From: Halomicronema hongdechloris C2206
Lineage (GTDB): Bacteria > Cyanobacteriota > Cyanobacteriia > Phormidesmidales > Phormidesmidaceae
Assembly (NCBI RefSeq): GCF_002075285.3
Contig: NZ_CP021983.2
Span: forward strand, 1,260,001 to 1,292,000
Reading direction: 5' to 3'
DNA length: 32,000 bases
Of this stretch, positions 11,451-29,853 are shown piece by piece (the first letter of the stretch is position 1; each line of letters starts with the position of its first letter). The notes beneath the pieces are model-generated. The model did not search any database, had not been told where the DNA came from, and worked only from the letters and a program-made list of their open reading frames with translations. Position numbers and translations under genes: made by a program.

Positions 11451-11996
11451 TCAAGCCTCAGGCTGTTTACCGCTTACCCGCTTCCATGCTGCAGCTGGAG
11501 CCATCCCGCGCCGGTATTCCACCCATGAGCTGAGTAAGGCCTCCCGCGCCATGCTGGCCATCTGTACCTTGGGATTGCCATGGACCATCGTGAACAGAAC
11601 CCGATAGTGATCACCGCCAATCTCTTTGAGGAGATCAATCGTTTGGACCAGCGCATCCACGGCCATGGCCTCAGGAGTGGTAGGCAGTATCAGCAGGTCG
11701 CACCCTTCCACCAGTGGCTCCAAGTCCTCCCGCGATGGCCGCGCGCCGGTGTCGATCACCACGTGCTTAAACTTTGGGATATGCCTAAAGGCAGCATCCA
11801 CGGCCACCACCTTAAACGGCAGCTCACCGCGCTTACTCCAGGAGGTGGCGCTCCTGTTTTCATCCCCATCCACCAGGAGGACACTCTCACCACCGTCCAG
11901 GCCAGCTAGAAACGCGGCCAAGTGGATGGTACTGGTGGTTTTGCCCACTCCTCCCTCGAAGGAGCTGACGGTTAAAAACATTGGATTACACCTCAC
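11451..11996 (-). CDS. ParA/Soj-family ATPase, small, with atypical Walker A (FEGGVGKTT)
   Basis: MFLTVSSFEGGVGKTTSTIHLAAFLA...VLLVDGDENRS...VVIDTGARPS...LLILPTTPE match the ParA deviant Walker A, A' and B layout. The likely start is 11981. The signature Lys is replaced by Glu. Confidence 0.75.
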   Translation of the reverse strand: MRCNPMFLTVSSFEGGVGKTTSTIHLAAFLAGLDGGESVLLVDGDENRSATSWSKRGELPFKVVAVDAAFRHIPKFKHVVIDTGARPSREDLEPLVEGCDLLILPTTPEAMAVDALVQTIDLLKEIGGDHYRVLFTMVHGNPKVQMASMAREALLSSWVEYRRGMAPAAAWKRVSGKQPEA

Positions 11997-15612: not shown

Positions 15613-16311
15613 TTAAGACCAGAGCCCCTTAAACTGGGTGGGACTCATGGCGGTGTAGTGGGCCGTATGGCGGATGTTGGCGTGGCCCAGCCAGGCTTGG
15701 ATTGTGCGGGTATCGACGCCCTTATTCGCCAGGTAATAGCCGCAGCTATGGCGAAGCATGTGGGCATGGATGGGAAAACGGAATAGACCCTTGCCGGTGC
15801 GCTTGATCATGGCTGAAATCGCACTGCTGGCCAGGGGAGCCCCGGTGCTGCTGCAGAATATAAAAGGACTGTCGGCGTTTTCCCGTTCCAGCCGTCGCAG
15901 CCCCCTCAGCTCATCCCCCTCTAGGTAATGGGTGGAGTCGTGAGAGCCCTTGAGCCGACGGATCAAGATAGTGCCCTGCTGAAAATCCACATCAGCCCAG
16001 CGCAGATCGGCTATTTCTGAGACCCTGAGCCCGTGCCGATAGCCCATCAGCACAATCATGTGGTTGCGGTGACCGTTGCGGGCCGTGCGCTTAGCCGCCG
16101 TCAACAGCTGGTCTATTTCAGCCGGGGTCAGATACTCGCGCGTCCGCCCCGTCGCCTCGTGGCCTTTGTTAGGACTGGTGCCTGCCTTGGCCAACCGAGG
16201 GCGGACACCAGGGAAGGGCAGCACTGAGCCCTTTTGTTCAACTTTCGGTTCTTGGGCGTCTAGATTCATGGTGGCTCGATCTCCTGTCGCAGCGATACTG
16301 GGCGGGGCCAT
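15613..16311 (-). CDS. small tyrosine recombinase (FimB/FimE-like size, catalytic domain only)
   Basis: Catalytic signature present: GLRVSEIADLRWADV (Arg), HAHMLRHSCGYYL (His-x-x-Arg), WLGHANIRHTAHYT (His...Tyr). No separate arm-binding domain. Confidence 0.85.
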   Translation of the reverse strand: MAPPSIAATGDRATMNLDAQEPKVEQKGSVLPFPGVRPRLAKAGTSPNKGHEATGRTREYLTPAEIDQLLTAAKRTARNGHRNHMIVLMGYRHGLRVSEIADLRWADVDFQQGTILIRRLKGSHDSTHYLEGDELRGLRRLERENADSPFIFCSSTGAPLASSAISAMIKRTGKGLFRFPIHAHMLRHSCGYYLANKGVDTRTIQAWLGHANIRHTAHYTAMSPTQFKGLWS

Positions 16312-16421: not shown

Positions 16422-17468
16422 CTAGGGCTCAGCGCCGATAATCATGGGTTTGATCCAGATCAGCCTTCGCGACCTGCGACCGGCCCCGACCGGCTGATTT
16501 CGCCAATGCCCCCGTCGCCAATGCTCCCGCTTCCCACTTCCGCCACCCGCGCGCTTGCCCTCGCGGGGGGAACGAAGCTCCGATTTGGGCATGGATATAA
16601 CACGCGGCTGCCAATAGCGAGTCTGAGATCTCCTTGGTGGATTGCCTTTGGGCGTTGCTGGGGGATTCCCCTCCCCCGATATCAGTGAGGGCTGGTAGCT
16701 AGCGATTAGCAGTAGCTGCAACAGGATATTACGCACATGGTGCGTGAATTCGAGGTCTGCCCCGGTTAGCTCACTTGTGCCAAGGGTCGGAGGCCCTTGG
16801 ATGAGCGAGCCATCATTAGCGATGTCGAAGCCGCTAAACAGGGTACTGCAACGGGTATCCAGGGTGCTCCATTGCCAGTTGTACCGATAGTCGTTTTGGT
16901 GGGGGAGCCACGGGAAACGATAGGTGTTGCCCGCTAACTCATACTCACCCTGACTTAGTTCGGGATGTTCGCGATCCGATATATGCACCACTGCCCAGTC
17001 CACGCATCCTCCATCTGGGGCAATAAGGGCGTTGCTAGGCAGCAGAAATAGGGCTGTGCGAATAGGCGGTTCATTCAAGCCCGCCAGTAGTTTGTTGTCA
17101 GCGGCGAAATCAATGTCTGTATGCTCGCAGGCCCGTAACACTGCCGTGCGTACCAGATACAGAGGGGCATTCTGAGATAGCCACAAACCGCATCGATGCC
17201 CATGCAGGAGGGTGGCGCGATCTACTCCCTCCACCGCATTGATGAGTACTGCCATTGCAGTGCATAGCTCATCCCACCGCGCAAACCCTTTGGGAATCCG
17301 GTAGGGGCGACATTGCTTAATGGCGGCTGCCACTGTGCCGTATTTGCTAGTTAGCGCTTTTGCGGCTTGCGATCGCGAGTGCCATACATCCATCTTTGAC
17401 GCTCTCCGTGTATAGCTGGAGACCCCCGTGCGGGGGCAATAAAGGGGGTGGGAGAATCTCCCAGTCAA
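16422..17468 (-). CDS. orphan protein with Arg/Gly/Trp-rich basic C-terminal tail
   Basis: The probable start is MDVWHS at 17393 (GGAGAG about 9 nt upstream). C-terminus reads ...GKREHWRRGHWRNQPVGAGRRSRRLIWIKPMIIG. No family recognised. Confidence 0.6.
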   Translation of the reverse strand: MTGRFSHPLYCPRTGVSSYTRRASKMDVWHSRSQAAKALTSKYGTVAAAIKQCRPYRIPKGFARWDELCTAMAVLINAVEGVDRATLLHGHRCGLWLSQNAPLYLVRTAVLRACEHTDIDFAADNKLLAGLNEPPIRTALFLLPSNALIAPDGGCVDWAVVHISDREHPELSQGEYELAGNTYRFPWLPHQNDYRYNWQWSTLDTRCSTLFSGFDIANDGSLIQGPPTLGTSELTGADLEFTHHVRNILLQLLLIASYQPSLISGEGNPPATPKGNPPRRSQTRYWQPRVISMPKSELRSPREGKRAGGGSGKREHWRRGHWRNQPVGAGRRSRRLIWIKPMIIGAEP

Positions 17469-17627
17469 TCTCGCAAAGTCACTCCCCCCCGCAGGTCGGG
17501 GGCGGGCAAGTCATGAGCAAGCCTGGGGCAAGTCAGGTCCACTCCCCCCCGCAGGTCGGGGGCGGGGGCGCAGTACGGGCTCAACACAGGCTCACAAAAC
17601 ACACTCCCCCCGCAGGTCGGGGGCGGG
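17420..17627. repeat. CRISPR-like mini-array / GC-hairpin repeat array (3 conserved + 1 degenerate repeat)
   Basis: CACTCCCCCC(C)GCAGGTCGGGGGCGGG at 17480-17506, 17540-17566 and 17602-17627. Degenerate hairpin CCCCCGTGCGGGGG at 17422-17437. Period 58-62 bp. The intervening ~33-42 bp segments are mutually unrelated. No cas genes in the window. Confidence 0.5.
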
Positions 17628-17666
17628 GGTTAGGTCCGCGATATTGCGGATATTGCGGACCTAACC
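17628..17666 (-). terminator. strong hairpin (12-bp perfect stem, 15-nt loop) after the long operon
   Basis: GGTTAGGTCCGC-GATATTGCGGATATT-GCGGACCTAACC, 13 nt beyond the stop of the 81-aa gene. No clear U-tract, so the terminator role is inferred. Confidence 0.45.
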
Positions 17667-17678
17667 AAGAATGGTTAG

Positions 17679-17924
17679 TCACCACTCCATCAGGGTGCCG
17701 ATCACGTTGCCACCCCAGCCCTGCTGGCCAGGCGCGCGGCTGAGCAGCGTTATAACGCCGTTGCCATCAACGTGGGTATCGGTAATCTTCTGCCCGCCGA
17801 ACCAATAATCAGCGGCCATCTGCAACGCCTGCTTATAGCTAGGAGCTTCAAAAGTGCGTCGCCAGTCGATATCGTCCGGTAGGTTGTGGGTACGTCGCGC
17901 GAATGTGTAGCTAGTAGTTGTCAT
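17679..17924 (-). CDS. hypothetical protein (81 aa), last gene of the long operon
   Basis: ATG-initiated ORF 12 nt downstream of the GIY-YIG gene. No domain recognised. Confidence 0.5.
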   Translation of the reverse strand: MTTTSYTFARRTHNLPDDIDWRRTFEAPSYKQALQMAADYWFGGQKITDTHVDGNGVITLLSRAPGQQGWGGNVIGTLMEW

Positions 17925-17936
17925 TGTCTATGTCTA

Positions 17937-18251
17937 TTACTCCATTACGCCCCGGTGTTTACCCGGGTCAGCGGTCTGCAGCTTGCAGCACCAACAGAGC
18001 CGTGGTGCGTTCTTTTGTGCCTTCAGTGCTCGCTCAAAATCCCTCCCCATATTTGGCCAGGTGCAGACGACATCGAACTCAATACCGCGCTCATGAGCCA
18101 CAGCACAGAAGCGACTCCCTCGCCCCTTACGGTGTTGTTTAATCCGCTTGTCGATGTCAGTTGCGTAGCCGATATAATGCCTCGCTCGATTCGGTGTGGA
18201 AGGATCGAGCGGCTGCCTGAAGTGCAACAGGTAACAGCCCCTCATCATCAA
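17937..18251 (-). CDS. GIY-YIG domain nuclease-like protein
   Basis: CYLLHF...ARHYIGYATDIDKRIKQHRKGRGSRF...ERGIEFDVV...FERALK... fits the GIY...YIG...R...E layout. C-terminal CWCC. The start ATG overlaps the stop of the upstream micro-ORF. Confidence 0.65.
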   Translation of the reverse strand: MMMRGCYLLHFRQPLDPSTPNRARHYIGYATDIDKRIKQHRKGRGSRFCAVAHERGIEFDVVCTWPNMGRDFERALKAQKNAPRLCWCCKLQTADPGKHRGVME

Positions 18252-18424
18252 AATTCCCCTCCATCGGCACGGCCAAAGGCAAACGCCTGGTTGACGTGCT
18301 GCTGCCCTGGGGATGGCTGATCCAACTGCCAGAGCCGGTTAATGACGGCTATCCGATAGGCAGAGTCACTGTCGATGCGGCCCCACTGCAGTCGGTTGGC
18401 TTGGCGAATGTCGGTTAGGTGCAT
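18248..18424 (-). CDS. micro-ORF (58 aa), below ORF-track cutoff
   Basis: Hand translation: MHLTDIRQANRLQWGRIDSDSAYRIAVINRLWQLDQPSPGQQHVNQAFAFGRADGGEF*. Its TGA overlaps the ATG codons of the GIY-YIG gene. Confidence 0.45.
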   Translation of the reverse strand: MHLTDIRQANRLQWGRIDSDSAYRIAVINRLWQLDQPSPGQQHVNQAFAFGRADGGEF

Positions 18425-18440
18425 GAGTGGAGTCCTTTAG

Positions 18441-18617
18441 TCAAAACTGGGGGGCGCTCATCTGCAGCAAACTAGGCGCTTCAGCCTCGAAGTTTGAGAT
18501 CGCAGCTCCCCGCGTTGGGTGACCGTCTTCGCTGCAGAAGTCCTCGGTCTCCCAGTGCCAACCGTGGCCGGGAATCTCGTAGACCTGCAGCTGGTCTCTC
18601 AGTTCATCGATCGTCAT
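18441..18617 (-). CDS. micro-ORF (58 aa), below ORF-track cutoff
   Basis: Hand translation: MTIDELRDQLQVYEIPGHGWHWETEDFCSEDGHPTRGAAISNFEAEAPSLLQMSAPQF*. Its ATG overlaps the last 14 nt of the hydrolase gene. Confidence 0.45.
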   Translation of the reverse strand: MTIDELRDQLQVYEIPGHGWHWETEDFCSEDGHPTRGAAISNFEAEAPSLLQMSAPQF

Positions 18618-19812
18618 CTCTTATATGCTTCAGTAGCTGATCTACTCGTCTTCTCTGATCAGCGGGGACATTCATGGGGGCCCCGCCCAACTCCCTGCGC
18701 GATTCATTCAGGGCAGCAATGCGGGCGGCGACAAGCTGCTCAGGTGTGGGCGCGTGCGTTGGCAAGTGTTTGATCAGGCGACTCCCGGCATCCGGAGACT
18801 GATTCCAAATATCCAGGGCAGCTGCGATCGCAGGCTTAGACAGTGGCTGCCCCCATTTTTCTAGAGCCCGCTTCTGAAGGTCCCGTTCAGCCTGTTGTAG
18901 TCGCGCTAGTTGTTTCTGGTCGGCTTCCTCTGGAGTGCTGGCCCCGTGTTGATACGAAAAACTGCCCATGTTACGGGCACCATTGCCGGGGTCCCTGTGG
19001 CCGTAGTAGGCGCTTGTGGGGTCACAGTTGTCATCTCTGGTTCCCTCTGCTGCACCGATGGCACAGGTTTTCTCAGTGTTACTGAGTTCACTAAAGGGAG
19101 CTACCGGCTTGCTGCCGGTTAGCGCCCAGATCAGTGGTCCATTGGCAGGGTGATAATGCGCTCCGGATGCATCCCGCTCACGCCAGTCTAGATGGGGGCC
19201 AGTACCGTTCCCGGTCGCCCCGGTTTTGGCAATGATTTGCCCGCCACGGTGCCAACCGTCGGCGCAGCGGGAGAGGTGTAGAGCCTGGAATTTGCGGGCT
19301 GGCAGCGACTCGCTCTCGATATCAGCTACCAATCCTCCGCCATTGCCATCACGCCAGCATCGCACTCTGACCCGTTTGTCTTTATCCGCTGGAGCGTAGA
19401 TGGTGGTGCCGCTAGGGGTAGCGAGATCTACGCCACGGTGCTGATTGCTGCAGCCCTCACACGGTGCCTTGCGTGGCCCATAGCCACTGGTGACGGGATG
19501 CCCAGCAATCTTCTCCCCCGCCTGAATGGGCTCACCGAAATCAGGCGCGATCGCGTCACCCACCGCGTCAGCTGATTCGGTGACCCGGGTCACCATATTG
19601 AGCCCCTGGGCGATTCTGTCATTGAGGGAGGGGACCAGCACCGGAGCCAGCAGCAGGGATGATAGGCCTACACAGATAGCCGTGATAGACCAGTCCCTTC
19701 TTTGCCATTGATTAACCAAGCTCCACTGCAGATCGGGCGATAGTTCCTCAAAGGTTGGTCTAATTGGTCTAACGGGTGAGCCTTGCATCCTGCACCTCCC
19801 CGTCGTCGGCAT
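18604..19812 (-). CDS. bifunctional cell-wall hydrolase: M23 peptidase domain + lambda-lysozyme-like (lytic transglycosylase/GH104-like) domain
   Basis: N-terminal TM. M23 motifs HRGVDL (HxxxD) and GATGNGTGPHLDW. C-terminal IGAAEGT...GSFSYQ...LDIWNQSPDAG parallels phage lambda R (LAWSEGT...GAGRYQ...SNIWASLPGAG). Confidence 0.7.
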   Translation of the reverse strand: MPTTGRCRMQGSPVRPIRPTFEELSPDLQWSLVNQWQRRDWSITAICVGLSSLLLAPVLVPSLNDRIAQGLNMVTRVTESADAVGDAIAPDFGEPIQAGEKIAGHPVTSGYGPRKAPCEGCSNQHRGVDLATPSGTTIYAPADKDKRVRVRCWRDGNGGGLVADIESESLPARKFQALHLSRCADGWHRGGQIIAKTGATGNGTGPHLDWRERDASGAHYHPANGPLIWALTGSKPVAPFSELSNTEKTCAIGAAEGTRDDNCDPTSAYYGHRDPGNGARNMGSFSYQHGASTPEEADQKQLARLQQAERDLQKRALEKWGQPLSKPAIAAALDIWNQSPDAGSRLIKHLPTHAPTPEQLVAARIAALNESRRELGGAPMNVPADQRRRVDQLLKHIRDDDR

Positions 19813-20185
19813 AAATTACATCAATGCTCAGGCCTGATTCGGTGAGCCAACGGTAGGTGTCGTTGGCCAGCTGGCAGGTGGGAGGCCCTAACCATTGCAC
19901 GGCGATCTGTTCAGTCTCGCCGGTGAGGGCTCCCCGTAATTGCTCCTGGGTATTGCCAACGGTATTCTCGCTGAGCACTTGCTGGCAGGCCTCGAGTCGC
20001 GGATCATCCTCACCAGGGGGCTGTAGTTCCCGCCAACCCCGATCGAGTTTGGCGATCTGTGCCTTGGCCAGCCAGACAGGATTGATAAACCGTCCCCATC
20101 CTGGGGCGGCCATATCGGCTATCAGGATGAGGAGTGCTGCCGGCACAGATGAGATCGCAATGTTTCTGGCTTTGGCTCGGTTCAT
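19769..20185 (-). CDS. membrane-anchored hypothetical protein
   Basis: N-terminal TM (IAISSVPAALLILIADMAA). Its ATG overlaps the upstream stop (ATGA). Confidence 0.5.
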   Translation of the reverse strand: MNRAKARNIAISSVPAALLILIADMAAPGWGRFINPVWLAKAQIAKLDRGWRELQPPGEDDPRLEACQQVLSENTVGNTQEQLRGALTGETEQIAVQWLGPPTCQLANDTYRWLTESGLSIDVIYADDGEVQDARLTR

Positions 20186-20706
20186 TGGTCTACTGGGACG
20201 GCGCGGATCACTGGTCGGGATTCGACCGGGGTTCCCATTTCCTCAGTGCCCAGCATTACGTCATGAATTCCACCGGCTGCTGCCCGAGTAGGGGGAGCCA
20301 CAATCGCGGCCAGGTTACAGCCACTAACGACGGGGTTCCAAATATCGCCTCGACATTGCAGCACATCACCCCGCATTAGATTGAGTCCTCCAGATGCTCC
20401 GGCTAGGCCCAGCCAGACCGATGCACCGGTGACAGCCATGGTCTGTAGTGGGCGATGCCTGAGGCACGATAACCAGGCTCTGATAGCCATCAGAGAGCCC
20501 ATGTCGTCAGTGGCGGTATCAATAAAAAACAGCGGTTTCCGCTTATTTGTCGCATCAAAATACCCGCCATCTGCGATATTGCTTCTAGGAGCATTGCGAC
20601 GCCTTCCAATACCACCGCCACTCTGGTAGGGCGCTAGGCCACCACCGGTGCCGCCAACTGTGCTGAATTCTACGTCGATAACATCGTTATTTTTCGGACC
20701 AACCAT
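20182..20706 (-). CDS. hypothetical Gly-rich protein
   Basis: 174-aa ORF overlapping both neighbours. No domain recognised. Confidence 0.45.
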   Translation of the reverse strand: MVGPKNNDVIDVEFSTVGGTGGGLAPYQSGGGIGRRRNAPRSNIADGGYFDATNKRKPLFFIDTATDDMGSLMAIRAWLSCLRHRPLQTMAVTGASVWLGLAGASGGLNLMRGDVLQCRGDIWNPVVSGCNLAAIVAPPTRAAAGGIHDVMLGTEEMGTPVESRPVIRAVPVDQ

Positions 20707-22000
20707 TGTCTTGAGCCTCCAAGATATCGATCATGGTTTTGTATTGGTCTAGAGCGTCTTTGTAGGCCTGAGACCCCCCTTTCTTAACGCCCCATAGGGC
20801 GAGTAGGATTTGAGCCTGGTTGAGGCCCATCTCACGGCAGTCTCTGACCCGGTTCAGAATCTCAGGGGTAGAAAAAGGGGGGTCTGAACCGCCTGAACCG
20901 AACCGGTTCAGACCTGAACCCTGACTCGTGTATCCCTTGCCATATAGTCGGTTCAGCGTTTGAACCATATCTGAACCTCGGTTCAGATCCTGAACCGTCC
21001 CCCCCACTGTCACACTTGGAACCTTGTAGCTCAGTAGGGGCATCCACTCCCCTAGATCTGAGTGATAAAAGATGGCTTTTTTAGGGCTGAGAGATTGCTG
21101 AAATACCAAAGCATCCGGTTTCGTTTCGATGCTGCGATACGACTTCATCAAACTATGCAGATGCTCAGTCGATTCCGGTGTCTCAATCGCCAAAAGTCGA
21201 AGCGGGGCGCGGTTGCCACCAGTAAGGCCTAAATCAGCTACAAGTGGCGATTGGGTAATCATCCATAGGTGCCGGTCATCGGTCTCGCCGCTGCTCATTT
21301 CTACCTTGATGGTGGGGATGAGGAAATCCCGATACCACTTTGGCTGCATGGCATCTAATTTGATGCCCTCATCGATGACCAGTACAGTGGGTCTCGTCGG
21401 TTGCCGTCGCCATTCATGGATGAAGTCGGTCAGCTGCTGGGCGATAGTTTCGTCATTGGGCGCGTGGTCTTCCAGCATTACCGGCAAAATGCGATCACAT
21501 CCATCCCAGTAGCCCATCTCATTCTTGTGTGGCTTCGGCTGAATTACCCAGATCGTTGCCTCGGGGCGGATTTGCTTCACATAGCGCCAGGCCTGAGCAA
21601 TGACGACGCCTTTACCGGTGCGAGGATTGCCGGTGATCAGTGTCGGGTGTAGGTTATTGGCCAACACTCCGGCCACGTCGATATACCGTTTCGGTGGCTC
21701 CACACCGGGCGGTGCCTCGATGGTTTGCCCTGATGGTTGTGCCTGGCTATCGTCAGCAATGGTCACCGGCTTGGGCTGTTGGTCCATCAGCCACCAGCCC
21801 AGGAAACCTAAGGCAGTCAACCCTAGGGCTACCGCAGGAAGGCGGCCAGGGCGCTGATACTGCACCTCTACCGCCTGACCATTGGCAAAGGCGGCCAGGT
21901 CGTCAGCCGTCAGTGTGGATAGCTGTGGCGCTGTAGTAGCAATCCCTAGGGACGCCACCCCGCAGCCTGCAGCAGTTGCCAGGCGATAGATCGGCTTCAT
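20687..22000 (-). CDS. membrane-anchored P-loop NTPase with C-terminal HTH-like domain
   Basis: Two N-terminal hydrophobic segments. Walker A-like ITGNPRTGKGV. Walker B-like PTVLVIDEG. G/S-rich linker. C-terminal helical GLNQAQILLALWGVKKGGSQAYKDALDQY. Architecture, not demonstrable homology, resembles FtsK/TraB. Confidence 0.6.
   Translation of the reverse strand: MKPIYRLATAAGCGVASLGIATTAPQLSTLTADDLAAFANGQAVEVQYQRPGRLPAVALGLTALGFLGWWLMDQQPKPVTIADDSQAQPSGQTIEAPPGVEPPKRYIDVAGVLANNLHPTLITGNPRTGKGVVIAQAWRYVKQIRPEATIWVIQPKPHKNEMGYWDGCDRILPVMLEDHAPNDETIAQQLTDFIHEWRRQPTRPTVLVIDEGIKLDAMQPKWYRDFLIPTIKVEMSSGETDDRHLWMITQSPLVADLGLTGGNRAPLRLLAIETPESTEHLHSLMKSYRSIETKPDALVFQQSLSPKKAIFYHSDLGEWMPLLSYKVPSVTVGGTVQDLNRGSDMVQTLNRLYGKGYTSQGSGLNRFGSGGSDPPFSTPEILNRVRDCREMGLNQAQILLALWGVKKGGSQAYKDALDQYKTMIDILEAQDNGWSEK
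20884..20996. repeat. cluster of ~10 GGTTCAG/CTGAACC 7-mers inside the ATPase coding sequence
   Basis: ggTCTGAACCgcCTGAACCGAACCGGTTCAGacCTGAACC...cGGTTCAGcgtTTGAACCatatCTGAACCtcGGTTCAGatcCTGAACC. Includes the palindrome GAACCGGTTC. Confidence 0.8.
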
Positions 22001-22644
22001 GGTTGCTCTCTAACCTCCCATGCCTTGGATTCAGCCTCAGCACTCCGTAGGCGCTGACGGCTTTCGACTAGGTTCTGAATGGCTAGCTGGCTGAGGTTGG
22101 CTTCAGGCTCAACCGGGGCAACTGATTGTCGGGCCAGCTCGATGGCCTGAACCCGACTGACAGCGCCTAGCATCTGCTGCCAATCGCGATCCGCTTTGGC
22201 CCGCTCGATGGATGCGATCGCATCTCTAGCAAACTGGTCTAGGGCGCAATGAACCGATTGACTGAAGCAGGACGCTTCCGGGTCTGTGGCCTGGCGTTCG
22301 GCCTCTAGCAAATAGCGCCTAGCTTCCTGGCTGAGTAGCTGTTCCCTAAAAGCCTGCAGCTGCTCTGAGGATTGATAGATCAGCTCTTCAGTGCTGCTCT
22401 CAGCCCCGGCCACAATCGCATCTTTATCCAGCTCCATCGATGGTTCTGGCTGGTAGGTCTGGCCACCGGTGCCGGTGAATAGGGCAATACCTAGCCCCAG
22501 GACAGCTATGCTGCCGATGCCACCGGCAATTAAGACATCCTGACGCTGCCACCATTTAGGGGCTGGCTGGTCGATGCGGACAATCTCACGGCGAAACTCA
22601 GGCGGCACGGTGAATGGGGTTTCACGAGTGTCTTTCTCTTTCAT
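21997..22644 (-). CDS. single-pass membrane coiled-coil protein
   Basis: TM helix (VLIAGGIGSIAVLGLGIALF) followed by a helical charged region. ATGA overlap with the downstream ATPase gene. Confidence 0.5.
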   Translation of the reverse strand: MKEKDTRETPFTVPPEFRREIVRIDQPAPKWWQRQDVLIAGGIGSIAVLGLGIALFTGTGGQTYQPEPSMELDKDAIVAGAESSTEELIYQSSEQLQAFREQLLSQEARRYLLEAERQATDPEASCFSQSVHCALDQFARDAIASIERAKADRDWQQMLGAVSRVQAIELARQSVAPVEPEANLSQLAIQNLVESRQRLRSAEAESKAWEVREQP

Positions 22645-22647
22645 GGC

Positions 22648-22965
22648 TTAGCCCCCCGTAGGCATCAATGAGGCGATTCCCTCAATCAACCGCACGGCAT
22701 CGCTAGCCCCGTTTAGCTCTGAGTCCAGCTGGGCCAGCAGTTGCAGCAATCGAGGGTGAGAGGTAAATGAATAGCCATTGTTCTCGGCAATGACGTGTAG
22801 GTACTCGCTATGGCCGTCCATGGTGACCATGTAGGCAGCCTCGGCCAGGATGGCAATTAGGGCAAGGCGCTCGGGCGTCGGCATCTTCTGCAGCTTCGAC
22901 CCATATAGGGTCTCTAGCTGGGCCACAGCATTGCTATGAAAGAAGCTGGTCAAACACTGCATCAT
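22648..22965 (-). CDS. hypothetical protein (105 aa)
   Basis: ATG ORF 3 nt from both neighbours. No domain recognised. Confidence 0.45.
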   Translation of the reverse strand: MMQCLTSFFHSNAVAQLETLYGSKLQKMPTPERLALIAILAEAAYMVTMDGHSEYLHVIAENNGYSFTSHPRLLQLLAQLDSELNGASDAVRLIEGIASLMPTGG

Positions 22966-22968
22966 GGC

Positions 22969-23268
22969 TTAGCCCTCCACAGCAGATACGTGACCAGAGC
23001 CACCACAGCGGCCACAGGACAGCCGCTTCAGGTAGTGCCCGCTGCACTGAGGGCACAGCGGATTAGCTCGGCCATAGGCGGCAAGCGCGGTCTCTAGGTT
23101 GGCCAACATATCAACAGCCTGAACTAGGGCGGCATCCCGACTGAGCTCTGGGCTATTGCCCTGAATGCGGGCAGCGAATTCTCGGATATCGTGGGCAGTT
23201 AGCATTGGAAAAGCTCCTATCTGATGGGCTAGACGGGGGAGTTGGCTTGGCGGCGGCTCCCCCGCCAT
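22969..23268 (-). CDS. small zinc-ribbon protein
   Basis: C-terminal CPQCSGHYLKRLSCGRCGGSGH (CxxC...CxxC). The likely start is MLTAHD at 23205, which has AGGAG 8 nt upstream. Confidence 0.5.
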   Translation of the reverse strand: MAGEPPPSQLPRLAHQIGAFPMLTAHDIREFAARIQGNSPELSRDAALVQAVDMLANLETALAAYGRANPLCPQCSGHYLKRLSCGRCGGSGHVSAVEG

Positions 23269-23280
23269 CGAGGATGGTCT

Positions 23281-23499
23281 CTAGCGGTGAAGGCTCTCGA
23301 CAAGCGCGATTCGGTCGTCGATCACCGGGTGGTAGCTGGGCAACGTTTGGGGCTTCAGCGTTGCCCAGGCCCGCTTCAATGCGGCCCATTCGCTGGGGCT
23401 TGGAGCAGGTGCCCCAAACTCAGTCAAGTCTTCCAGGCGGCGGCGAATTTCGATCAGTTGCATAATGATTTCAGTCCTTTCCTTGAGTGGTTTGGGCAA
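23281..23499 (-). CDS. hypothetical small protein
   Basis: The ORF-track start is TTG. The likely ATG start is 23463 (MQLIEIRRRLEDL...). No domain recognised. Confidence 0.4.
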   Translation of the reverse strand: MPKPLKERTEIIMQLIEIRRRLEDLTEFGAPAPSPSEWAALKRAWATLKPQTLPSYHPVIDDRIALVESLHR

Positions 23500-23541
23500 T
23501 GGGGGGAGTGAAGCTGTCCAGGCGGCTCCCCCGTCATCGGC

Positions 23542-23685
23542 TTATTCGTAGCAGTATTCTTTTGCGCTGACGTAGGCCGTAATATCGCGGGAATCGTGGA
23601 TCTCGAGCAGGGCATCGAGGATAGTTTCCAGGTCGTACTCCGAACAGATTTCGCGTAACAGCTGTTTCTGGCAGTCAATGGTCAT
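23542..23685 (-). CDS. micro-ORF (47 aa, acidic), below ORF-track cutoff
   Basis: Hand translation: MTIDCQKQLLREICSEYDLETILDALLEIHDSRDITAYVSAKEYCYE*. AGGAG lies 7 nt upstream. It is preferred over the overlapping 23454..23678 track ORF, whose sequence looks non-protein-like. Confidence 0.45.
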   Translation of the reverse strand: MTIDCQKQLLREICSEYDLETILDALLEIHDSRDITAYVSAKEYCYE

Positions 23686-23716
23686 CGTCGGGTCTCCTGA
23701 GTAGGACAGTAGGACG

Positions 23717-23947
23717 TTAGAGCGTTACGTCGGCCCAGTCTCCCGATAGGGCAACCCCATCAGAGTCGGGCATTGACGCGGTCGGCGCTGGGGGCGTAGG
23801 TGCGTTCCCGGCAGGGGCACCACAGATGTAGTCCTGAGCGATGAGTGTCTGCATGTAGACGTCGACAGGAACCCCAGCAGCTGCAGCCCGTTCGGCAATC
23901 AATTGGGCATATTCGGCAGACAAGTAGAAGCGTTGTTTCATCTCCAT
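23717..23947 (-). CDS. small RHH-like protein (ParR/ParG-like adaptor candidate)
   Basis: KQRFYLSAEYAQLIAERAAAAGVPVDVYMQTLIAQ fits strand-helix-helix. Lies 12 nt downstream of the actin-like ATPase gene. Confidence 0.5.
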   Translation of the reverse strand: MEMKQRFYLSAEYAQLIAERAAAAGVPVDVYMQTLIAQDYICGAPAGNAPTPPAPTASMPDSDGVALSGDWADVTL

Positions 23948-23959
23948 CTATGAGCCCTC

Positions 23960-25030
23960 CTATAGGCGATAGATGCCTTTCAGCTCCATTTCTTGGGGCT
24001 CCTGGCAGAGGGCCACTCCCAGCTGGTGAGCCACTGAGGCCACCCCTGGCAGCAGTGCGCCACCGCCAGCAATCACCTTCACTGGGCATTTCTGGAAAAT
24101 ATGAGCCCCTTCGACCTTGGCCGCGTGAATGCGGCCCTTGAGCCAAGGCTCGAAACACTGCAGATAGGCATCCCTGAAGCTGTCGCCAGAGTGCCCCCAC
24201 AGCTCAAACGTGCGAGCCTCAACCCCTAGGCGGATTGCTTCAGGACTAGGGCGAGTGCCGGTAGTGTTGGCCAGAGTGGCAATGGATTCGAATAGCTCTG
24301 CCACCCCTCCATTGAGGCTGAGGCTGTCGATCATGGCCCGGCTGCTGGGGTCAAAGCCGCTGATAGTGCTGTTCTGATAGCCCAAATCCAACACGGCAAC
24401 GGGGCGATCGGTTGCGATCGCAACGGCAGTCCCCAGGGACTCAGGCACCGGCTTAACACCAGTCACGTTGATGGTGATGCGGCGGCCAGCATTGACGGCG
24501 ACATCGTGCAGTCCCACCAGAGGCTTTAGCTCACCTGCCATCTGTGGAGTAGGCACAGACGCGGTCAAGGTGACGGTAAAAAGCTCCACATCGTCAGGGG
24601 CGATTTGAGCCAGCATGGCTAGGGCTAGCGGGCCATACCACTTAGGCTTGAGGCCATGGGCTAGCGATTCCAGCGTGGTGGCCGACTCGAGATTCTCGCC
24701 GGCGGCAAACTCACCCGCGTAGGGACTGTTCGTGATTTTTACCCGTAGCTGAGTAGCAGAACCAGCGCCAGTTAGGGGGATTTGGGGTGCTACCAGCGAT
24801 CGCAGCCGGTAGAATTGCCCGCCATCGAACACCTTCGCAAACCCGGCCCCGACCGCGATCGCAACCTTGTTCGCATCCGCCCCAATTGGGGCGGTATCGG
24901 CCGCTTTCGGCAGGACACTAGGGGGAGACAGTTGGGGGTCTGAAGTGGCTGTAAGCATTGTCGTTTCTGGGATAGGAGTGCATCTGGCCGCGAAACTTCT
25001 TTTTCCGGTATCGACCGAAAAGGTTCGCAA
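23960..25030 (-). CDS. actin-like (ASKHA fold) ParM/Alp-type ATPase
   Basis: Phosphate-2-like VAVLDLGYQNSTISG and adenosine-motif-like KVIAGGGALLPG. N-terminal FSVDTGKRS or AIAVGAGFAKV as phosphate-1 candidates. The start is uncertain (TTG 25030 or ATG 24958). Confidence 0.6.
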   Translation of the reverse strand: MRTFSVDTGKRSFAARCTPIPETTMLTATSDPQLSPPSVLPKAADTAPIGADANKVAIAVGAGFAKVFDGGQFYRLRSLVAPQIPLTGAGSATQLRVKITNSPYAGEFAAGENLESATTLESLAHGLKPKWYGPLALAMLAQIAPDDVELFTVTLTASVPTPQMAGELKPLVGLHDVAVNAGRRITINVTGVKPVPESLGTAVAIATDRPVAVLDLGYQNSTISGFDPSSRAMIDSLSLNGGVAELFESIATLANTTGTRPSPEAIRLGVEARTFELWGHSGDSFRDAYLQCFEPWLKGRIHAAKVEGAHIFQKCPVKVIAGGGALLPGVASVAHQLGVALCQEPQEMELKGIYRL

Positions 25031-25101: not shown

Positions 25102-25323
25102 ATGAGGAATTACCCTATGAATGAAGCGTTGCTAGGCGATGTGCCAACTAAGAAGCCCAAGGTATCAGTGGTGATGGATGAGTCTCTCAAGGCTGCTTTA
25201 GAAAAGTGGGCAGAGAAGGAAAGCCGCACTGTCTCCAACCTTTGCGAGCTGATACTGAAGGGTGCTGCTCGAGACGCTGGATATCTGGACGCTAGTGGCG
25301 ACGACGAGGAAGGAAATGACTGA
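25102..25323 (+). CDS. ribbon-helix-helix (CopG-family) protein
   Basis: KVSVVMDESLKAALEKWAEKESRTVSNLCELILKGA is a textbook RHH. Acidic tail. Confidence 0.75.
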   Translation: MRNYPMNEALLGDVPTKKPKVSVVMDESLKAALEKWAEKESRTVSNLCELILKGAARDAGYLDASGDDEEGND

Positions 25324-26761: not shown

Positions 26762-29167
26762 TTGCGACCTGATAACCGCCACTGGACGGATGGGCAGGAA
26801 TCGCCAAAATATTGCAGCCCGCGCGGCGATATTGACCGGCAGGCACTGTGGGTGCCACCCGGTGCAACGCTTAGCGACCTGGCCGCCGTCACCGAGGGGT
26901 GGAAGGACGCGGCGATCGCCACCATCCGCACCGGGCGGCCCGTTGGTGCAATTGCGGGGGTTTCCCATATCGCCAAAACGCTGCCTGCAGGTGTTGGGGT
27001 AACAACCGTTTTTGACAGCGATGGCCTGACCAACGCCAACGTCATGCAGGCCCTGATCAGGGGGGGGCTGCACCTGGGCGGCAAAATTACGCTCATCCCT
27101 CGGGATATTGGGGAGAAATGTGGGGCCACTGAATTTTTTGGCAGTGGCCGGACACAGTCTGATTTTGACCAATTGTTGGCGGGCGCGCGAAACCCCCGAG
27201 CGTTTTTCCTGCAATGGTTGGGGTATCTCAGCGATGCTCCCCTGCCCAAAAACTGCGACACGCTGACGGCCCTGTATCAGCGGCTGTGGCGGATCGCCTG
27301 GCATCTCGACAGAGACTGCCATGAACTGCGGAGTCGGGTTGAGGCGTTCATCCAGGCCCATTCTCGGGCCAATGGCGTCAAATTGAATAAACCCGATGTG
27401 CGAGCCATTCGCAGTGCGGCCACAAAACCACTCTGGGAGCGGGAATCGCAACGGCAACTGGCAGAGCGCAGGGCGGCGGCGACAACTCAAACAGATTCAT
27501 CCTGGACTGTCAAACGCTGTTTCGATGATGCGATCACCCTCACCCCCGACGGGGTCCGACTGCCTCCAACGGGCAAATTGGCGGCCCTGATGGAGCAGAG
27601 CTGGTCGAAACATTTGAAATGGCGGCTCGATTTTTCCAGTTTTTATGCATACGGCAGGACGACACCTGGGCTGTGGGAGCGGGTCAGCGATCGCGAGGTG
27701 AAGGAACTCGTGCAGCGGGAGCTAGATGCTGCTGGAACTGATGGGGAATATGGTTTGACCGTGGTTGATAATACTGTGGCCCTGTTGAGCCAACGGGTCT
27801 CGGTGCGGCAGCTGCCACAGGCCCACGGCTACATTCCATTCCGCAATGGGGTGTTGCGGGTTTCGGACAGGACCCTGCTGGAGCACAGTCCTGACTACGG
27901 GTTCACCTGGCAATTGCCCTATGATTACATCCCCGGGGCAGAGTGTGGCCCGGTTGTGGACTGGCTGGGGTGGGCGGTGAACGGAGACAAAACAGTTGTC
28001 CAACTCATTCGCGCCTGTCTCAAAGCGATGATTTTGGGACGTACAGATTTTCAGCGTTATCTCGAAATCGTTGGGCCTGGTGGAACAGGGAAGGGCGTGT
28101 TAATTCGTCTAATTCAGGCCCTGCTGGGGAGGTCGAACACCGTCAGTACCTCTCTATCACGCATCGCCAACAGTAGGTTTGAGACAGGGCGATTCATGGG
28201 GAAACGATTGATTTTCATCCCTGATGCGGACTACAACCCCACGGCCGTCGACACGCTCAAACAATTGACCGGTGAGGATTTTATTCCGTGGGAGCGCAAA
28301 AACGAGAACTCTGATTATTGCGATGGGTTCACCCTGGAGGGGTGGGTGATGGTGGCGACCAACAGGGAAATTGTTGCCAGCGATCATACGAATGCACTAT
28401 TCCGGAGGCGAATTCCAATCTATTTCAACCACGTGGTTCCTGATGGCGAGCGGCGGGATCTAATTAGTTTTTGCCCCGATGGCAGTCTACGAGGCGAGTT
28501 TGCCGACCTCCTGCCGGGGGTGTTCAACTGGGTGCTCGACATGCCGGATAAATTGATGGAACGGTATATCAAAAACCCGCGAGAGTACGTGCGCTCGATG
28601 GGTGAGTTCCAGGCCGAGACATTACTCGAAACCAACAGTGTGGCGGCATGGGTGGACGAAAATGTTGTTTATCAACCGGGCGAATTTGCAAAAATCGGTG
28701 GCAAAAACAACCCCGCAGACAGCTGTCTATACCCGAACTATGTGGCATGGTGCGAGGCTACGGGCAGCAAGACCGTGGGTCTCAGGACATTTGTGAAAGA
28801 CTTCAAAAATTTGTTTTGTAATGAATTGGGGTTGGATGTCTCGAAACGGCGCGATCGGAACCGAGGCTCTGGGTTTGACAATATTCGCCTGCGGATTTGT
28901 GGGGGCGATGGGGAGCCCCGAGAGGATGAGCCCTGCACGGTTGAGCGGGCATTGGGCGGCTCAACCCAAAACGATACCAACGGTGATGGCGATGGCATTT
29001 CATTGTCGAAACAGGATTTAAAACAACTTCTAAACCTCTATTCTGATGACCCACCAGTTTTTGAATCCGAGCTGCAGCGATTGTCAGGGCTGCAACGGGA
29101 TCATCTCTACCAGGAGTTGCCTGAACTCAGGCCCATGGCGGGGGAGGTGAATGGGCATGTTAGGTGA
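26762..29167 (+). CDS. replicative primase-helicase: Toprim-like (DUF3854-type) domain + D5_N-like + P4/D5-type SF3 helicase
   Basis: QLRPDN...KYCSPRG, then VTEGWKDAAI...GVTTVFDSDG (Toprim-like). Then YIPFRNGVL..., Walker A GPGGTGKGV, Walker B RLIFIPDAD, motif C VMVATN. Confidence 0.8.
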   Translation: MRPDNRHWTDGQESPKYCSPRGDIDRQALWVPPGATLSDLAAVTEGWKDAAIATIRTGRPVGAIAGVSHIAKTLPAGVGVTTVFDSDGLTNANVMQALIRGGLHLGGKITLIPRDIGEKCGATEFFGSGRTQSDFDQLLAGARNPRAFFLQWLGYLSDAPLPKNCDTLTALYQRLWRIAWHLDRDCHELRSRVEAFIQAHSRANGVKLNKPDVRAIRSAATKPLWERESQRQLAERRAAATTQTDSSWTVKRCFDDAITLTPDGVRLPPTGKLAALMEQSWSKHLKWRLDFSSFYAYGRTTPGLWERVSDREVKELVQRELDAAGTDGEYGLTVVDNTVALLSQRVSVRQLPQAHGYIPFRNGVLRVSDRTLLEHSPDYGFTWQLPYDYIPGAECGPVVDWLGWAVNGDKTVVQLIRACLKAMILGRTDFQRYLEIVGPGGTGKGVLIRLIQALLGRSNTVSTSLSRIANSRFETGRFMGKRLIFIPDADYNPTAVDTLKQLTGEDFIPWERKNENSDYCDGFTLEGWVMVATNREIVASDHTNALFRRRIPIYFNHVVPDGERRDLISFCPDGSLRGEFADLLPGVFNWVLDMPDKLMERYIKNPREYVRSMGEFQAETLLETNSVAAWVDENVVYQPGEFAKIGGKNNPADSCLYPNYVAWCEATGSKTVGLRTFVKDFKNLFCNELGLDVSKRRDRNRGSGFDNIRLRICGGDGEPREDEPCTVERALGGSTQNDTNGDGDGISLSKQDLKQLLNLYSDDPPVFESELQRLSGLQRDHLYQELPELRPMAGEVNGHVR

Positions 29168-29423: not shown

Positions 29424-29699
29424 ATGCAGATGACCCTGCTGACCACTGATGAGGCGTGTGAACTCCTGCGCTGTAAGCCAGACTCCCTTAAGACCCTGCG
29501 CGATAGCTGGATTCACGGCGTCCACTACGTTAAACGCGGTCGCGGCCCCACGGCCCCAGTGCTCTACAACCGAGAATTGATTCTCGACTGGCTGGTCAAC
29601 CAGGATGCTCCCGAAACCCACCAGGCTGCAATCGAACACTTCAGACGCAGCCTGCCCAGTGGCCAAAAACGAACCATTTCACGAAAACCGAAAGGCTGA
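29424..29699 (+). CDS. xis: excisionase / AlpA-type HTH (MerR-like HTH_17) protein
   Basis: LLTTDEACELLRCKPDSLKTLRDSWIHGVHYVKRGRGPTAPVLYNRELILDWL matches the Xis/AlpA helix-turn-helix pattern. Adjacent to the arm-type repeats and the integrase. Confidence 0.7.
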   Translation: MQMTLLTTDEACELLRCKPDSLKTLRDSWIHGVHYVKRGRGPTAPVLYNRELILDWLVNQDAPETHQAAIEHFRRSLPSGQKRTISRKPKG

Positions 29700-29707
29700 C
29701 CCCCTTG

Positions 29708-29814
29708 CTGTGTAGGGGTGTGTAGGGGTCCTGTGTAGGGGGCAATCTCAACCCCTACACGCTGAAACCCTTGCTGTGTGGGGCTTGTGTAGGGCGTGTA
29801 GGGGTGTGTAGGGG
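29708..29814 (-). repeat. GTGTAGG(GG) repeat array (6 good + 1 degenerate copy, plus one CCCCTACAC in the opposite sense); candidate arm-type sites
   Basis: GTGTAGGGG at 29710, 29720, 29733, 29796 and 29806. GTGTAGGG at 29787. CCCCTACAC at 29752. This is the inverse complement of the motif at 9667-9795, and the GGTTTCAGC neighbour motif is also shared in inverse orientation. Confidence 0.7.
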
Positions 29815-29853
29815 TTATCCCTATACTCATAGGGGACACGCAAAAAAAAATAT

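Follow-up and report, generated by a model that had tools for sequence, protein, structure and literature searches.

What is the function of the fifteen tightly packed open reading frames (ORFs) that fill positions 17679-25030, all on the minus strand, in a 32-kb stretch of chromosomal DNA (the window) from the filamentous cyanobacterium Halomicronema hongdechloris C2206? The run lies within a 21.6-kb island in tRNA-Val(gac) (window 9487-31170), which encloses it as a whole. A reading made from the letters alone (the sequence-only reading) had proposed that the fifteen genes form one operon of mostly orphan proteins and encode a device that translocates DNA or crosses the envelope by means other than a type IV secretion system (T4SS). 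All fifteen ORFs are present. The proposal holds up for a core of five genes, where a predicted FtsK/HerA-like fold of the ATPase, conserved synteny and a repeat array speak for it, and not for the fifteen-gene run. We tentatively interpret the five-gene module as an apparatus for translocating double-stranded DNA that resembles the TraB/clt system of Streptomyces.

Relatives of the locus were fetched as 32 genomic loci, 3 plasmid loci and 9 metagenomic or genomic contigs and compared by tblastn and all-against-all clustering (the narrower-alignment scan of genome contigs sampled only the Nodosilinea/Leptolyngbya clade). Five genes (18604-22644) recur together in these relatives, always in the same order, and encode a transmembrane (TM) coiled-coil protein, the ATPase, a 174-aa protein, a TM protein of 138 aa and a TM-anchored hydrolase (core genes 1 to 5; Table 1). 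This order is kept in about 28-30 of 35 loci (those with enough flanking DNA), at 33-50% identity, and appears again in loci L036-L038. Core gene 1 is syntenic in 30 of the 35 loci and core gene 3 in 29, where its product, mostly 44-51% identical, is the best conserved of the core. Some relatives insert a very hydrophobic 80-aa ORF between core genes 1 and 2. The layout of the run in the window marks out the same genes. Stop/start overlaps are found at six of the 14 junctions (-4, -20, -4, -44, -14 and -4 nt), in keeping with the earlier estimate of about half, and the other eight are gaps of 3-42 nt. Five of the six overlaps join core genes 1-5 and the ORF that follows, and the genes joined in this way are exactly the five conserved ones.

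Co-occurrence across loci holds for these five genes only, and the idea of fifteen genes kept as one conserved block has to be given up. The description of the products as mostly orphan stands only in part: five of them have homologues in about 35 loci. The family of the ATPase comprises 512 representatives in a profile search (clusters at 50% identity), with 35 further protein clusters from genomes and metagenomes, and no Pfam, NCBIfam or PHROG model exists for it.

The core sits on at least four backbones. It accompanies an integrase and a P4 primase in some relatives, as in the window, and CyRepA1 or DUF3854 plasmid replicases in others; a backbone that we call type B combines ParA and a resolvase-type recombinase with an uncharacterised protein of 567 aa, and a further backbone has RPA, ParAB and VapE. 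Occurrence on such differing backbones indicates a portable function that does not depend on the replication system. As many as five copies of the module are found in a single strain, and the core behaves as a portable backbone function of mobile elements, unlike cargo. These observations bear on the alternative that the locus is a defence or exclusion system carried as cargo, a possibility that the sequence-only reading had also raised. Islands often bear defence genes, the GIY-YIG protein of the run has a weak PDC-S14 match, and in L037 the module has TIR and NACHT genes nearby. We find this explanation barely credible, however: no core protein has a PADLOC match, and the module does not behave as variable cargo would, for it adjoins replication and regulator genes, is kept on different replicons and is present in several copies in a cell.

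The ATPase encoded by core gene 2 had been described as a TM P-loop ATPase with a C-terminal helix-turn-helix (HTH)-like domain. This description is sound: the protein has Walker A and Walker B motifs, begins with two helices and ends, after a disordered linker, in a domain of three helices. The family alignment shows the invariant motifs PRxGKG (Walker A), QPKP..E..YW, hhhhDE (Walker B), SSGETD..R and TQSP. In the AlphaFold2 (AF2) model, which has an overall predicted local distance difference test (pLDDT) score of 78.8, the core (residues ~100-330) mostly scores above 90 and is followed by the disordered linker (334-372) and the C-terminal three-helix HTH (378-431, pLDDT 85-91). Membrane association is predicted from a hydrophobic segment (54-72) and AF2 helices 3-22 and 53-73, and is kept across the family.

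Foldseek comparison of the model with the PDB returned the FtsK motor 2ius (E=1.4e-5, TM-score 0.34-0.38), TcpA 6o1w, EccC/EssC, STIV2 B204 and FlaH/KaiC, and the matches in BFVD were mainly FtsK-HerA/A32-type ATPases. The beta-strands continue past the Walker B/sensor-1 strand without a helical lid, which argues for the FtsK/HerA-RecA side rather than for AAA+ ATPases. The remote-homology and structure searches suggested in the sequence-only reading therefore give the ATPase a weakly FtsK/HerA-like fold and assign it to no sequence family. From the model, the ATPase may be an FtsK/HerA-like pump anchored in the membrane.

The remaining core products appear to be membrane proteins or to have probably periplasmic domains. 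TM segments are predicted in the 215-, 437-, 138- and 402-aa products of the run, as had been noted from the sequence. Core protein 1 has a short N-terminus, one TM segment (~35-61) and a helical domain in which two Cys residues (C126, C133) are conserved. Core protein 3, probably a small membrane protein, is predicted to consist of a disordered N-terminus with an invariant DGGYFDA motif, a helical hairpin (68-112) and a further helix (125-136), and also has a Cys pair (C118, C130); it gave no match in a PDB profile search. Core protein 4 has an N-terminal TM segment (8-29); the domain that follows, about 100 aa long, also holds a conserved pair of Cys residues (C67, C104). As the conserved Cys pairs of core proteins 1, 3 and 4 lie outside the TM segments, the soluble parts of these proteins are probably periplasmic and would contain disulfides. 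A relationship between the TM coiled-coil family and the proteins encoded upstream of distant ATPases was considered and dropped, since hhalign shows none.

Core gene 5 encodes the peptidoglycan hydrolase, and both of its domain labels find support. The M23 domain matches Pfam (1.6e-7, a score that exceeds the cut-off) and, by PDB profile, 6muk (2.5e-17), and the lysozyme-like C-terminus carries lambda-lysozyme-like AEGT...GSFSYQ motifs, with Pfam Phage_lysozyme found in the L036 orthologue. Of the two M23 motifs, H125-x3-D129 is present, and the other is H207-L-D209 in the window and in four relatives and HLH in L004 and L031. In the L004 clade, an SLT-type transglycosylase domain replaces the lysozyme-like one (alignment A5), a domain swap that supports a glycan-cleaving role for the hydrolase.

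The ATPase gene also contains a candidate cis-acting site. Nine exact GGTTCAG/CTGAACC heptamers, equal to ten GGTTCA hexamers, lie within 146 nt, with none elsewhere in the gene and only four copies of the repeat word in the rest of the window. The array spans codons 335-384, which encode the disordered linker. Its copies occur in both orientations, some as 7-N2/3-7 palindromes, and neighbours are mostly 8-11 bp apart, with two gaps of 34-35 bp. All three codon phases are used (giving VQ, GS or LN), which indicates that the repeat belongs to the DNA and not to the peptide, and none of 300 codon shuffles attained the observed copy count. An RNA-structure reading of the array was unconvincing (z = -2.2).

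Significant arrays at the same position of the gene are present in eight of nine close homologues, and these are built from four other words. GGAAGT arrays, with five direct copies, a spacer of about 40 nt and three inverted copies, occur in L015, L023, L037 and L039 (with fewer exact copies in L039), whereas the word is CGTTAC in L038, CGAACG in L036 and AGTTCG in L041. When ten of these arrays are pooled, 38 of 80 neighbour spacings are 9-12 bp.

A prediction drawn from the protein alignment alone, and then confirmed, was that homologues with the HTH signature (I/L/V)WG(V/A)KKGG(S/T)xxY share the word GGTTCA. The genes of L042, L043 and L044 contain 11, 11 and 13 copies of it immediately 5' of the segment that encodes the HTH; shuffling gave at most 5. 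Compared with the window, these three genes are least identical in the core (45-47%) and most identical in the HTH (36-43%), whereas genes with other words have a core identity of 48-59% and an HTH identity of 19-26%. As far as these sequences go, the hexamer word tracks the type of C-terminal HTH and not the relatedness of the ATPase core. In a Tolypothrix plasmid homologue (25% identical, HTH 'LWQCKKGGSAAW'), GGTTCA is the top linker hexamer, with only four copies. Membrane-anchored translocases with a C-terminal HTH that reads short repeated words are known from the FtsK gamma/KOPS and SpoIIIE/SRS systems; in those systems the words are chromosome-wide and set direction, whereas here one array of about 150 bp lies in the motor's own gene.

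An intragenic array would also fit a replication initiator, in which a DnaA/Orc-like ATPase with an HTH would act on iterons that form an origin in the linker of its own gene. Origins within the linker-coding part of the rep gene are known from RepA_N replicons, and DnaA (8btg) and ORC2 are among the top PDB Foldseek matches of the ATPase, aligned over both the ATPase and the HTH. Set against this, loci whose flanks reach a replication gene have a separate replicase of varying type, the AAA+ helical lid is missing and the root-mean-square deviation to DnaA is 22 A, and two TM helices together with probably periplasmic partners would be implausible in an initiator. We hold such a role to be highly improbable.

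The array could alternatively be a centromere. The ATPase would then bind the array and tether or pump copies of the element at the membrane or closing septum, in an FtsK/KOPS-like or centromere-like role by which both daughter cells in a filament would receive the element; the hydrolase genes would be an addition of particular clades. Short phased repeats that run in both directions recall the centromeres of ParR, ParG and omega, and the array is a cis site tied to an ATPase of DNA-binding type; the ATPase alone is universal while the hydrolase is absent in several clades, and segregation or anchoring would fit plasmids, islands and phage-plasmids alike. This role nonetheless strikes us as distinctly unlikely. 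Partition genes are already present (ParM-like and ParA genes in the window, ParAB in L036 and ParA in type-B backbones), and intracellular partition does not readily explain why, in about 35 loci, the ATPase is tightly coupled in translation to a peptidoglycan hydrolase and probably periplasmic proteins. We also know of no partition ATPase that is a bitopic FtsK/HerA-like membrane protein.

Under the translocation reading, the excised or replicating double-stranded element would be recognised through the GGTTCA/TGAACC array by the C-terminal HTH of the ATPase itself. The ATPase, acting as a hexamer-type motor in the cytoplasmic membrane, would pump the DNA across that membrane, the hydrolase would open the peptidoglycan, and the partner proteins would form or stabilise the passage. 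Neither a relaxase nor VirB4 would be needed.

This scheme has its closest parallel in the actinomycetes. C-termini of TraB proteins recognise clt regions of direct 8-bp repeats, and TraB and Spd proteins bind peptidoglycan (PMC4447253). The TraB/clt/Spd elements of Streptomyces, which are conjugative plasmids and AICEs (for example pSVH1 and pSAM2; PMC4447253), resemble the island in being replicating elements of about 10-25 kb, often in a tRNA gene, with a single membrane-associated ring-translocase-type ATPase that ends in an HTH (predicted here), a cis locus of short repeats (a candidate one here) whose word varies between elements, and small membrane- or peptidoglycan-interacting partners without database homologues. 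They also have no relaxase and no VirB4, neither of which was detected in the island, and a filamentous septate host, as here. The present module differs in that it has no detectable sequence homology to TraB/FtsK_SpoIIIE, with weak fold similarity, and in that its host is a diderm cyanobacterium. In addition, its partners include a putative true enzyme (M23 plus lysozyme-like/SLT), where the TraB partners are only peptidoglycan-binding Spd proteins, and its repeats, 6-7 bp long, run both ways within the part of the ATPase gene that encodes the linker.

A second parallel is ICETh1 of Thermus. This element is integrated at a tRNA between 47-bp repeats, and its ATPase for DNA donation, TdtA, is hexameric and located in the membrane (PMC5365140). 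The 'transjugation' system of Thermus thermophilus shares with the island a tyrosine recombinase, an FtsK/HerA-like ATPase (predicted in the island) as the sole motor to push DNA, and nuclease genes in the operon (PMC5365140). It differs in that TdtA mediates generalised donation of chromosomal DNA with no known cis site, ICETh1 is reported to be apparently non-replicative (PMC5365140), no peptidoglycan hydrolase or small membrane partners have been described for it, and no sequence similarity to the present module was found. By analogy, the class of mechanism would be one known from actinomycetes and Thermus, and what would be new here are the unrelated proteins, the enzymatic wall partner, the intragenic address array and the diderm filamentous host. 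No earlier description of the module was found in the literature searched.

A relaxase-independent mechanism is consistent with the gene content of the locus. No ORF of the island has a relaxase, VirB4/AAA_10/CagE, type IV coupling protein (T4CP) or capsid family match, and no relaxase or VirB4 family match was found in the scanned or pre-annotated ORFs of related loci. The ATPase gave no T4SS-DNA_transf, TraG-D_C or TrwB match in Pfam or NCBIfam. The earlier remark that canonical T4SS motifs are missing is thus matched by family scans of the island, which likewise return no T4SS match. On pCC7120alpha, the ATPase homologue at 49-51 kb has a neighbourhood without T4SS-annotated genes.

These searches bear most directly on a serious rival, in which the module would be a mobilisation accessory. 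It would comprise a highly divergent T4CP and a VirB1-analogue hydrolase and would pass single-stranded DNA through an MPF_C T4SS, with the relaxase acting in trans and the repeats forming part of the origin of transfer (oriT). Two N-terminal TM helices followed by an NTPase are the layout of a T4CP, TcpA is among the best PDB structural matches, and inverted repeats are common in oriT. Of 62 Nostocales plasmids that carry the family, MOB-suite classes 35 as mobilizable and 12 as conjugative, and the L002 plasmid carries a MOBP relaxase and AAA_10-like genes. The ATPase, however, matches no T4CP model of Pfam or NCBIfam, the complete island and the scanned related ORFs are free of relaxase and VirB4 matches, and a sequence-specific C-terminal HTH with phased hexamer iterons is a trait of TraB and FtsK gamma and not of T4CPs. 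MPF_C loci, moreover, are compact and centred on VirB4 (PMC4027160), and none is adjacent here. We judge a divergent coupling protein for trans-mobilisation to be unlikely, though the segregation/anchoring and RepA_N-like intragenic origin readings are weaker rivals than it is.

TcpA of monoderm conjugation systems, a top structural match, has the same layout of N-terminal TM segments and an FtsK-like NTPase, and the monoderm hydrolases TcpG, PrgK, TraG of pIP501 and CwlT are VirB1 analogues that share with core protein 5 an N-terminal membrane anchor and two lytic domains (PMC4027160). Monoderm conjugation differs in requiring VirB4, VirB6 and VirB8 analogues and a relaxase, none of which is detected here. 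MPF_C is defined around VirB4 with VirB3, 6, 8, 9 and 10 homologues, purely in silico (PMC4027160). Modelled on the Nostoc PCC 7120 alpha plasmid, it comes from the same phylum and is the only earlier proposed cyanobacterial conjugation machinery; the present module has none of its VirB homologues.

Phages provide a further set of relatives. A tblastn search with the ATPase against 50,697 phage records gave no match, and PHROGs matches for ten island proteins (nine operon products and a 348-aa ORF) were limited to M23-type lysins, one Zn-ribbon and two unknown families. The best BFVD match of the ATPase is gp140 (712 aa) of Nodularia phage vB_NspS-kac65v161 (MK605243 87825-89963; L046 37825-39963), which has the same layout of two TM helices, Walker A/B, SQSP...RDNFD, a Pro/Glu-rich linker and a C-terminal HTH. 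The gene for gp140, a remote homologue with no reported function, is preceded by about 15 small ORFs in the early/replication region. L044, a metagenomic contig of 18.5 kb, encodes a DUF3854 replicase beside its ATPase with 13 GGTTCA copies, and its TerL (phrog_2, E=1e-30) and TerS genes (672-2472) are closest to those of Nodularia siphophages; this contig may be a phage-plasmid or satellite.

A phage-type function, such as DNA entry or exit, superinfection exclusion or lysis, would make the island a cryptic prophage-like or satellite element. It would accommodate gp140 and the terminase genes beside a family member in L044, the matches of the M23 domain to endolysin and tape-measure PHROGs, and the P4-type primase and tRNA integration, which recall a P4-like satellite. 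We nevertheless rate it as quite improbable, given that capsid, portal, tail and terminase genes are found neither in the island nor in 40 of 41 related loci, that the phage records contain no tblastn match and that the module is common on multicopy plasmids. Wherever phage genes occur there is a separate terminase, so the ATPase is unlikely to be the packaging motor; a role in virion packaging was rejected because the phage-borne relatives coexist with their own terminase. FtsK-HerA (A32-like) packaging ATPases of membrane-containing viruses are the commonest fold class among the BFVD matches, and the present family differs from them in the absence of capsid genes, the terminase of its phage relatives and the added TM anchors and HTH.

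Several observations weigh against the double-stranded DNA translocation reading. The ATPase has no meaningful match in Pfam, NCBIfam, PHROGs, PADLOC, PDB phmmer or PDB profile searches and no sequence-level membership in the FtsK/SpoIIIE, TraB, VirD4 or HerA families, and its PDB structural matches are weak (TM-score 0.3-0.55), with DnaA as the top match. Its hydrolase partner has HLD in place of HLH, which affects a zinc ligand, and the M23 domain may therefore be altered or non-catalytic. The DUF3854 clade and the Nostocales homologues lack core genes 3-4 and the hydrolase, which leaves the ATPase as the only universal component: in the DUF3854 clade (L042, L043) and on Nostocales plasmids it alone is recognisable, preceded by unrelated small proteins. 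The array and the HTH-coding DNA adjoin, and co-inheritance as a cassette could mimic co-variation of the two; arrays also fail to reach significance in Nostoc alr-type genes, phage gp140 and the L001/L004/L013/L025/L026/L031 clade. Typing assigns relaxases to many Nostocales plasmids that carry the family. Remote homologues occur in a 146-kb Nodularia siphovirus and beside TerL/TerS genes, and the function of the family must also suit phage. The host-range signal described below is confounded by phylogeny.

Homologues of the ATPase were found only in cyanobacteria, with 22 plasmids and no phage in the first tblastn search. All 84 matching plasmids (22 + 62) and all 32 genomic loci come from filamentous genera, yet plasmids of unicellular Synechococcus and of Acaryochloris, which are abundant in the same plasmid database, gave no matches. 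With no outer-membrane component and only filamentous named hosts, a septal route is the most economical for a translocation system: DNA would pass from cell to cell across septa in a filament, which has a continuous periplasm, or between touching filaments. In its widest form, this proposal would make the module an unrecognised relaxase- and VirB4-independent system for transfer of double-stranded DNA in filamentous cyanobacteria, in which a pump reads a hexamer 'address' in its own linker-coding DNA, and pump, hydrolase and membrane proteins move plasmids, islands and perhaps phage genomes across septa, into which the outer membrane does not extend. It would be a diderm counterpart of intramycelial spreading in Streptomyces that evolved independently. 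We regard this wider proposal as possible but more doubtful.

Native DNA transfer in cyanobacteria is almost unexplored, with MPF_C as the sole proposed machinery. If the module is a TraB-like pump that works without a relaxase, conjugation of double-stranded DNA would extend past the actinomycetes into a diderm phylum, the spread of many co-resident plasmids and islands in filamentous cyanobacteria could be explained, and horizontal transfer would be linked to multicellular architecture. The motor and its hexamer 'address' could then also supply genetic-tool parts for filamentous strains that are hard to transform. Whatever the function of the module, a repeat array of protein-binding type in DNA that encodes a disordered linker, swapped together with the adjacent HTH, is a clear example of overlapping DNA and protein codes.

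Table 1. Features of the island and its fifteen-ORF run, with one repeat array of related loci. Coordinates are those of the window unless a locus is named; aa, amino acids.
Feature	Position	Strand	Basis or remark
attL	9487-9541	.	displaced copy of tRNA-Val 3' 55 nt; left island end
Octamer array CCCTACAC	9665-9795	plus	just inside attL; ~8 copies in two 56-nt units
ParA gene	11451-11996		island
Second small tyrosine recombinase	15613-16311		island
27-nt G+C-rich hairpin repeat CCCCCCGCAGGTCGGGGGCGGG	17480-17627	.	three copies, ~60-nt spacing; 3 matches vs 0 expected
12-bp-stem hairpin	17628-17666	minus	read directly from sequence; probable terminator element
81-aa ORF, accessory, final gene of run	17679-17924	minus	ORF only
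GIY-YIG nuclease-domain protein, accessory	17937-18251	minus	Pfam GIY-YIG 8e-6, 26.5 bits vs cut-off 22.6
58-aa ORF, accessory, putative coding	18248-18424	minus	ORF only
58-aa ORF, accessory	18441-18617	minus	tblastn 45-49% identity in L026 and L029
Core gene 5, peptidoglycan hydrolase of two domains with TM anchor (40-64), 402 aa	18604-19812	minus	Pfam M23; PDB profile
Core gene 4, TM 138-aa protein	19769-20185	minus	TM scan; alignment A4; syntenic in 28 loci
Core gene 3, 174-aa protein	20182-20706	minus	alignments A3, A6; AF2 pLDDT 60, helices only
Core gene 2, predicted membrane-anchored FtsK/HerA-like P-loop ATPase, 437 aa (XM38_012370)	20687-22000	minus	motifs, AF2, Foldseek
GGTTCA/TGAACC array	20851-20996	.	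linker-coding part of ATPase gene; candidate cis-acting site (clt-like)
Core gene 1, bitopic TM coiled-coil protein, 215 aa	21997-22644	minus	TM scan; alignment A7
105-aa ORF, accessory	22648-22965	minus	ORF only; no family match
99-aa zinc-ribbon protein, accessory	22969-23268	minus	CxxC...CxxC in sequence
60-72-aa ORF, accessory, putative coding	23281-23499	minus	ORF only; no family match
47-aa ORF, accessory, putative coding	23542-23685	minus	ORF only; no homologue in fetched loci
76-aa putative ribbon-helix-helix (RHH)/ParR-like partner, accessory	23717-23947	minus	position and size only
ParM/Alp-like actin-fold ATPase, accessory	23960-25030	minus	ALP_N 4.8e-4; PDB ParM 3js6 0.045
RHH_5 (CopG-like) regulator, divergent from operon	25102-25323	plus	Pfam RHH_5 6.3e-7
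P4-family primase/D5-type superfamily 3 helicase	26762-29167	plus	TIGR01613 3.8e-32; D5_N, DUF5906, Pox_D5
Octamer array GTGTAGGG	29688-29815	plus	between integrase and primase genes; inverted relative to 9665-9795
Tyrosine integrase with arm-DNA-binding domain	29854-30951	minus	Pfam Phage_integrase 5.5e-20 and Arm-DNA-bind_2
tRNA-Val(gac)	31093-31170	minus	ARAGORN and Rfam; 3' 55 nt (31094-31148) = attR, right island end
WYMACGACTY arrays	L008 13429-13910; L013 13395-13583; L024 ~8260-8441; L029 13366-13586; L026 13626-13881

The island that carries the run has the features by which an integrative element is recognised, namely a tyrosine integrase adjoining a tRNA gene and, at the opposite end, a direct repeat of the 3' part of that tRNA. 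The attL sequence and its counterpart at 31094-31148 form a 55-nt direct repeat, 98% identical, and because this repeat duplicates the 3' end of tRNA-Val the operon must sit in an integrated element. A partial tRNA match in Rfam (9497-9556) overlaps attL. Judging from gene content, the primase-helicase serves replication of the element, and the island would be self-replicating. Orthologous elements adjoin the same tRNA-Val in three genomes (L008, L013 and L029), with integrases 65-70% and primases 60-64% identical, and tRNA-Pro is the neighbour of one more distant related element; the second att site of L008, L013, L029 and L016 was not found within the DNA fetched.

Upstream of the run, the RHH_5 regulator belongs to a cluster (c16) that is present in 20 of 36 clustered sequences (the window and 35 loci). 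It is the commonest regulator 5' of the core module in relatives and is also found upstream of it in L038, L041, L043 and L044. The two octamer arrays of the island, CCCTACAC and GTGTAGGG, may be arm-type sites of the integrase or primase iterons resembling P4 ori/crr. Sites of the HIP1 type (GCGATCGC) are found in the window, and the left chromosomal flank of the island is ordinary (HPPK, SDR, GHL10, SUI1 and a ShlB-type transporter).

The accessory genes of the run have no counterpart in the related loci; this applies to the ParM-like and 76-aa genes, the small ORFs, the GIY-YIG gene and the 81-aa gene, with one 58-aa ORF (18441-18617) as the exception. By tblastn, neither the ParM-like gene nor the GIY-YIG gene had a match in any of the 35 loci. 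The label of actin-like ATPase given to the first gene of the run is weakly yet concordantly supported: its Pfam ALP_N match falls below the gathering score, and 3js6 (ParM) is its sole PDB sequence match. LDLGYQNST and AGGGA motifs (phosphate-2 and adenosine motifs) are visible in the protein. The RHH label of the adjacent 76-aa product is plausible only, with no family match in any library scanned, and no parC-like repeats were found upstream of the ParM-like gene. The pair is most simply read as a separate ParM/ParR-type partition cassette, with the ParM-like protein as its probable motor. The Zn-ribbon label is supported by the CxxC...CxxC motif and by weak matches to phrog_3931 (8.7e-4) and the S27ae Zn-ribbon, and the GIY-YIG label by a score that exceeds the Pfam cut-off.

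The closing hairpin described for the run is also real, a perfect 12-bp stem (GGTTAGGTCCGC / GCGGACCTAACC) directly past the last stop codon. The three CCCCCCGCAGGTCGGGGGCGGG copies lie between the end of the operon and a 348-aa ORF, and the copy closest to the operon scores as terminator-like. These repeats generate a spurious repetitive plus-strand ORF (17360-17743). They were considered as a conserved clt and dropped from the core, being absent in all related loci. The 348-aa ORF (16422-17468), which lies 3' of the operon and is not conserved among related elements, has an Arg/Trp-rich C-terminus that matches phrog_6160 and phrog_15934, both of unknown function. Towards the left end of the island, a segment at about 12-15 kb is low-GC (41-49%) cargo, and the stretch 10000-11200, about 60% GC, has a strong A-over-T skew (0.2-0.4). 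The skewed stretch covers weak HTH/transposase-like ORFs (9573-10088 and 10437-10844).

Two further features were seen in the relatives. In some of them, 10-11 copies of WYMACGACTY with an 11-bp period form three clusters directly 3' of the hydrolase gene. Its occurrence follows that of the integrase/primase backbone, apart from a single CyRepA exception in the same strain. It is disfavoured as an equivalent of the hexamer cis site, since L004 shares the HTH yet has no array, so that the backbone is tracked more than the HTH; the array may be an origin, arm sites or a transfer locus. The 567-aa protein of type-B backbones (cluster c26; L005 4805-6508) has no Pfam match and has DxD and SGGLHLY motifs that recall primase-polymerases, and it may be an unusual replicase or relaxase.

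Finally, three or four module contigs per strain were found in Leptolyngbya sp. CCNP1308 (L005, L010, L017, L030) and Nodosilinea sp. AN01ver1 (L011, L020, L027). The coverage of these contigs (34-39 or 72-82) is about twice that of the chromosome-size contigs (18.5 or 30), which suggests that each strain holds several multicopy plasmids side by side, all of them with a module copy of their own.

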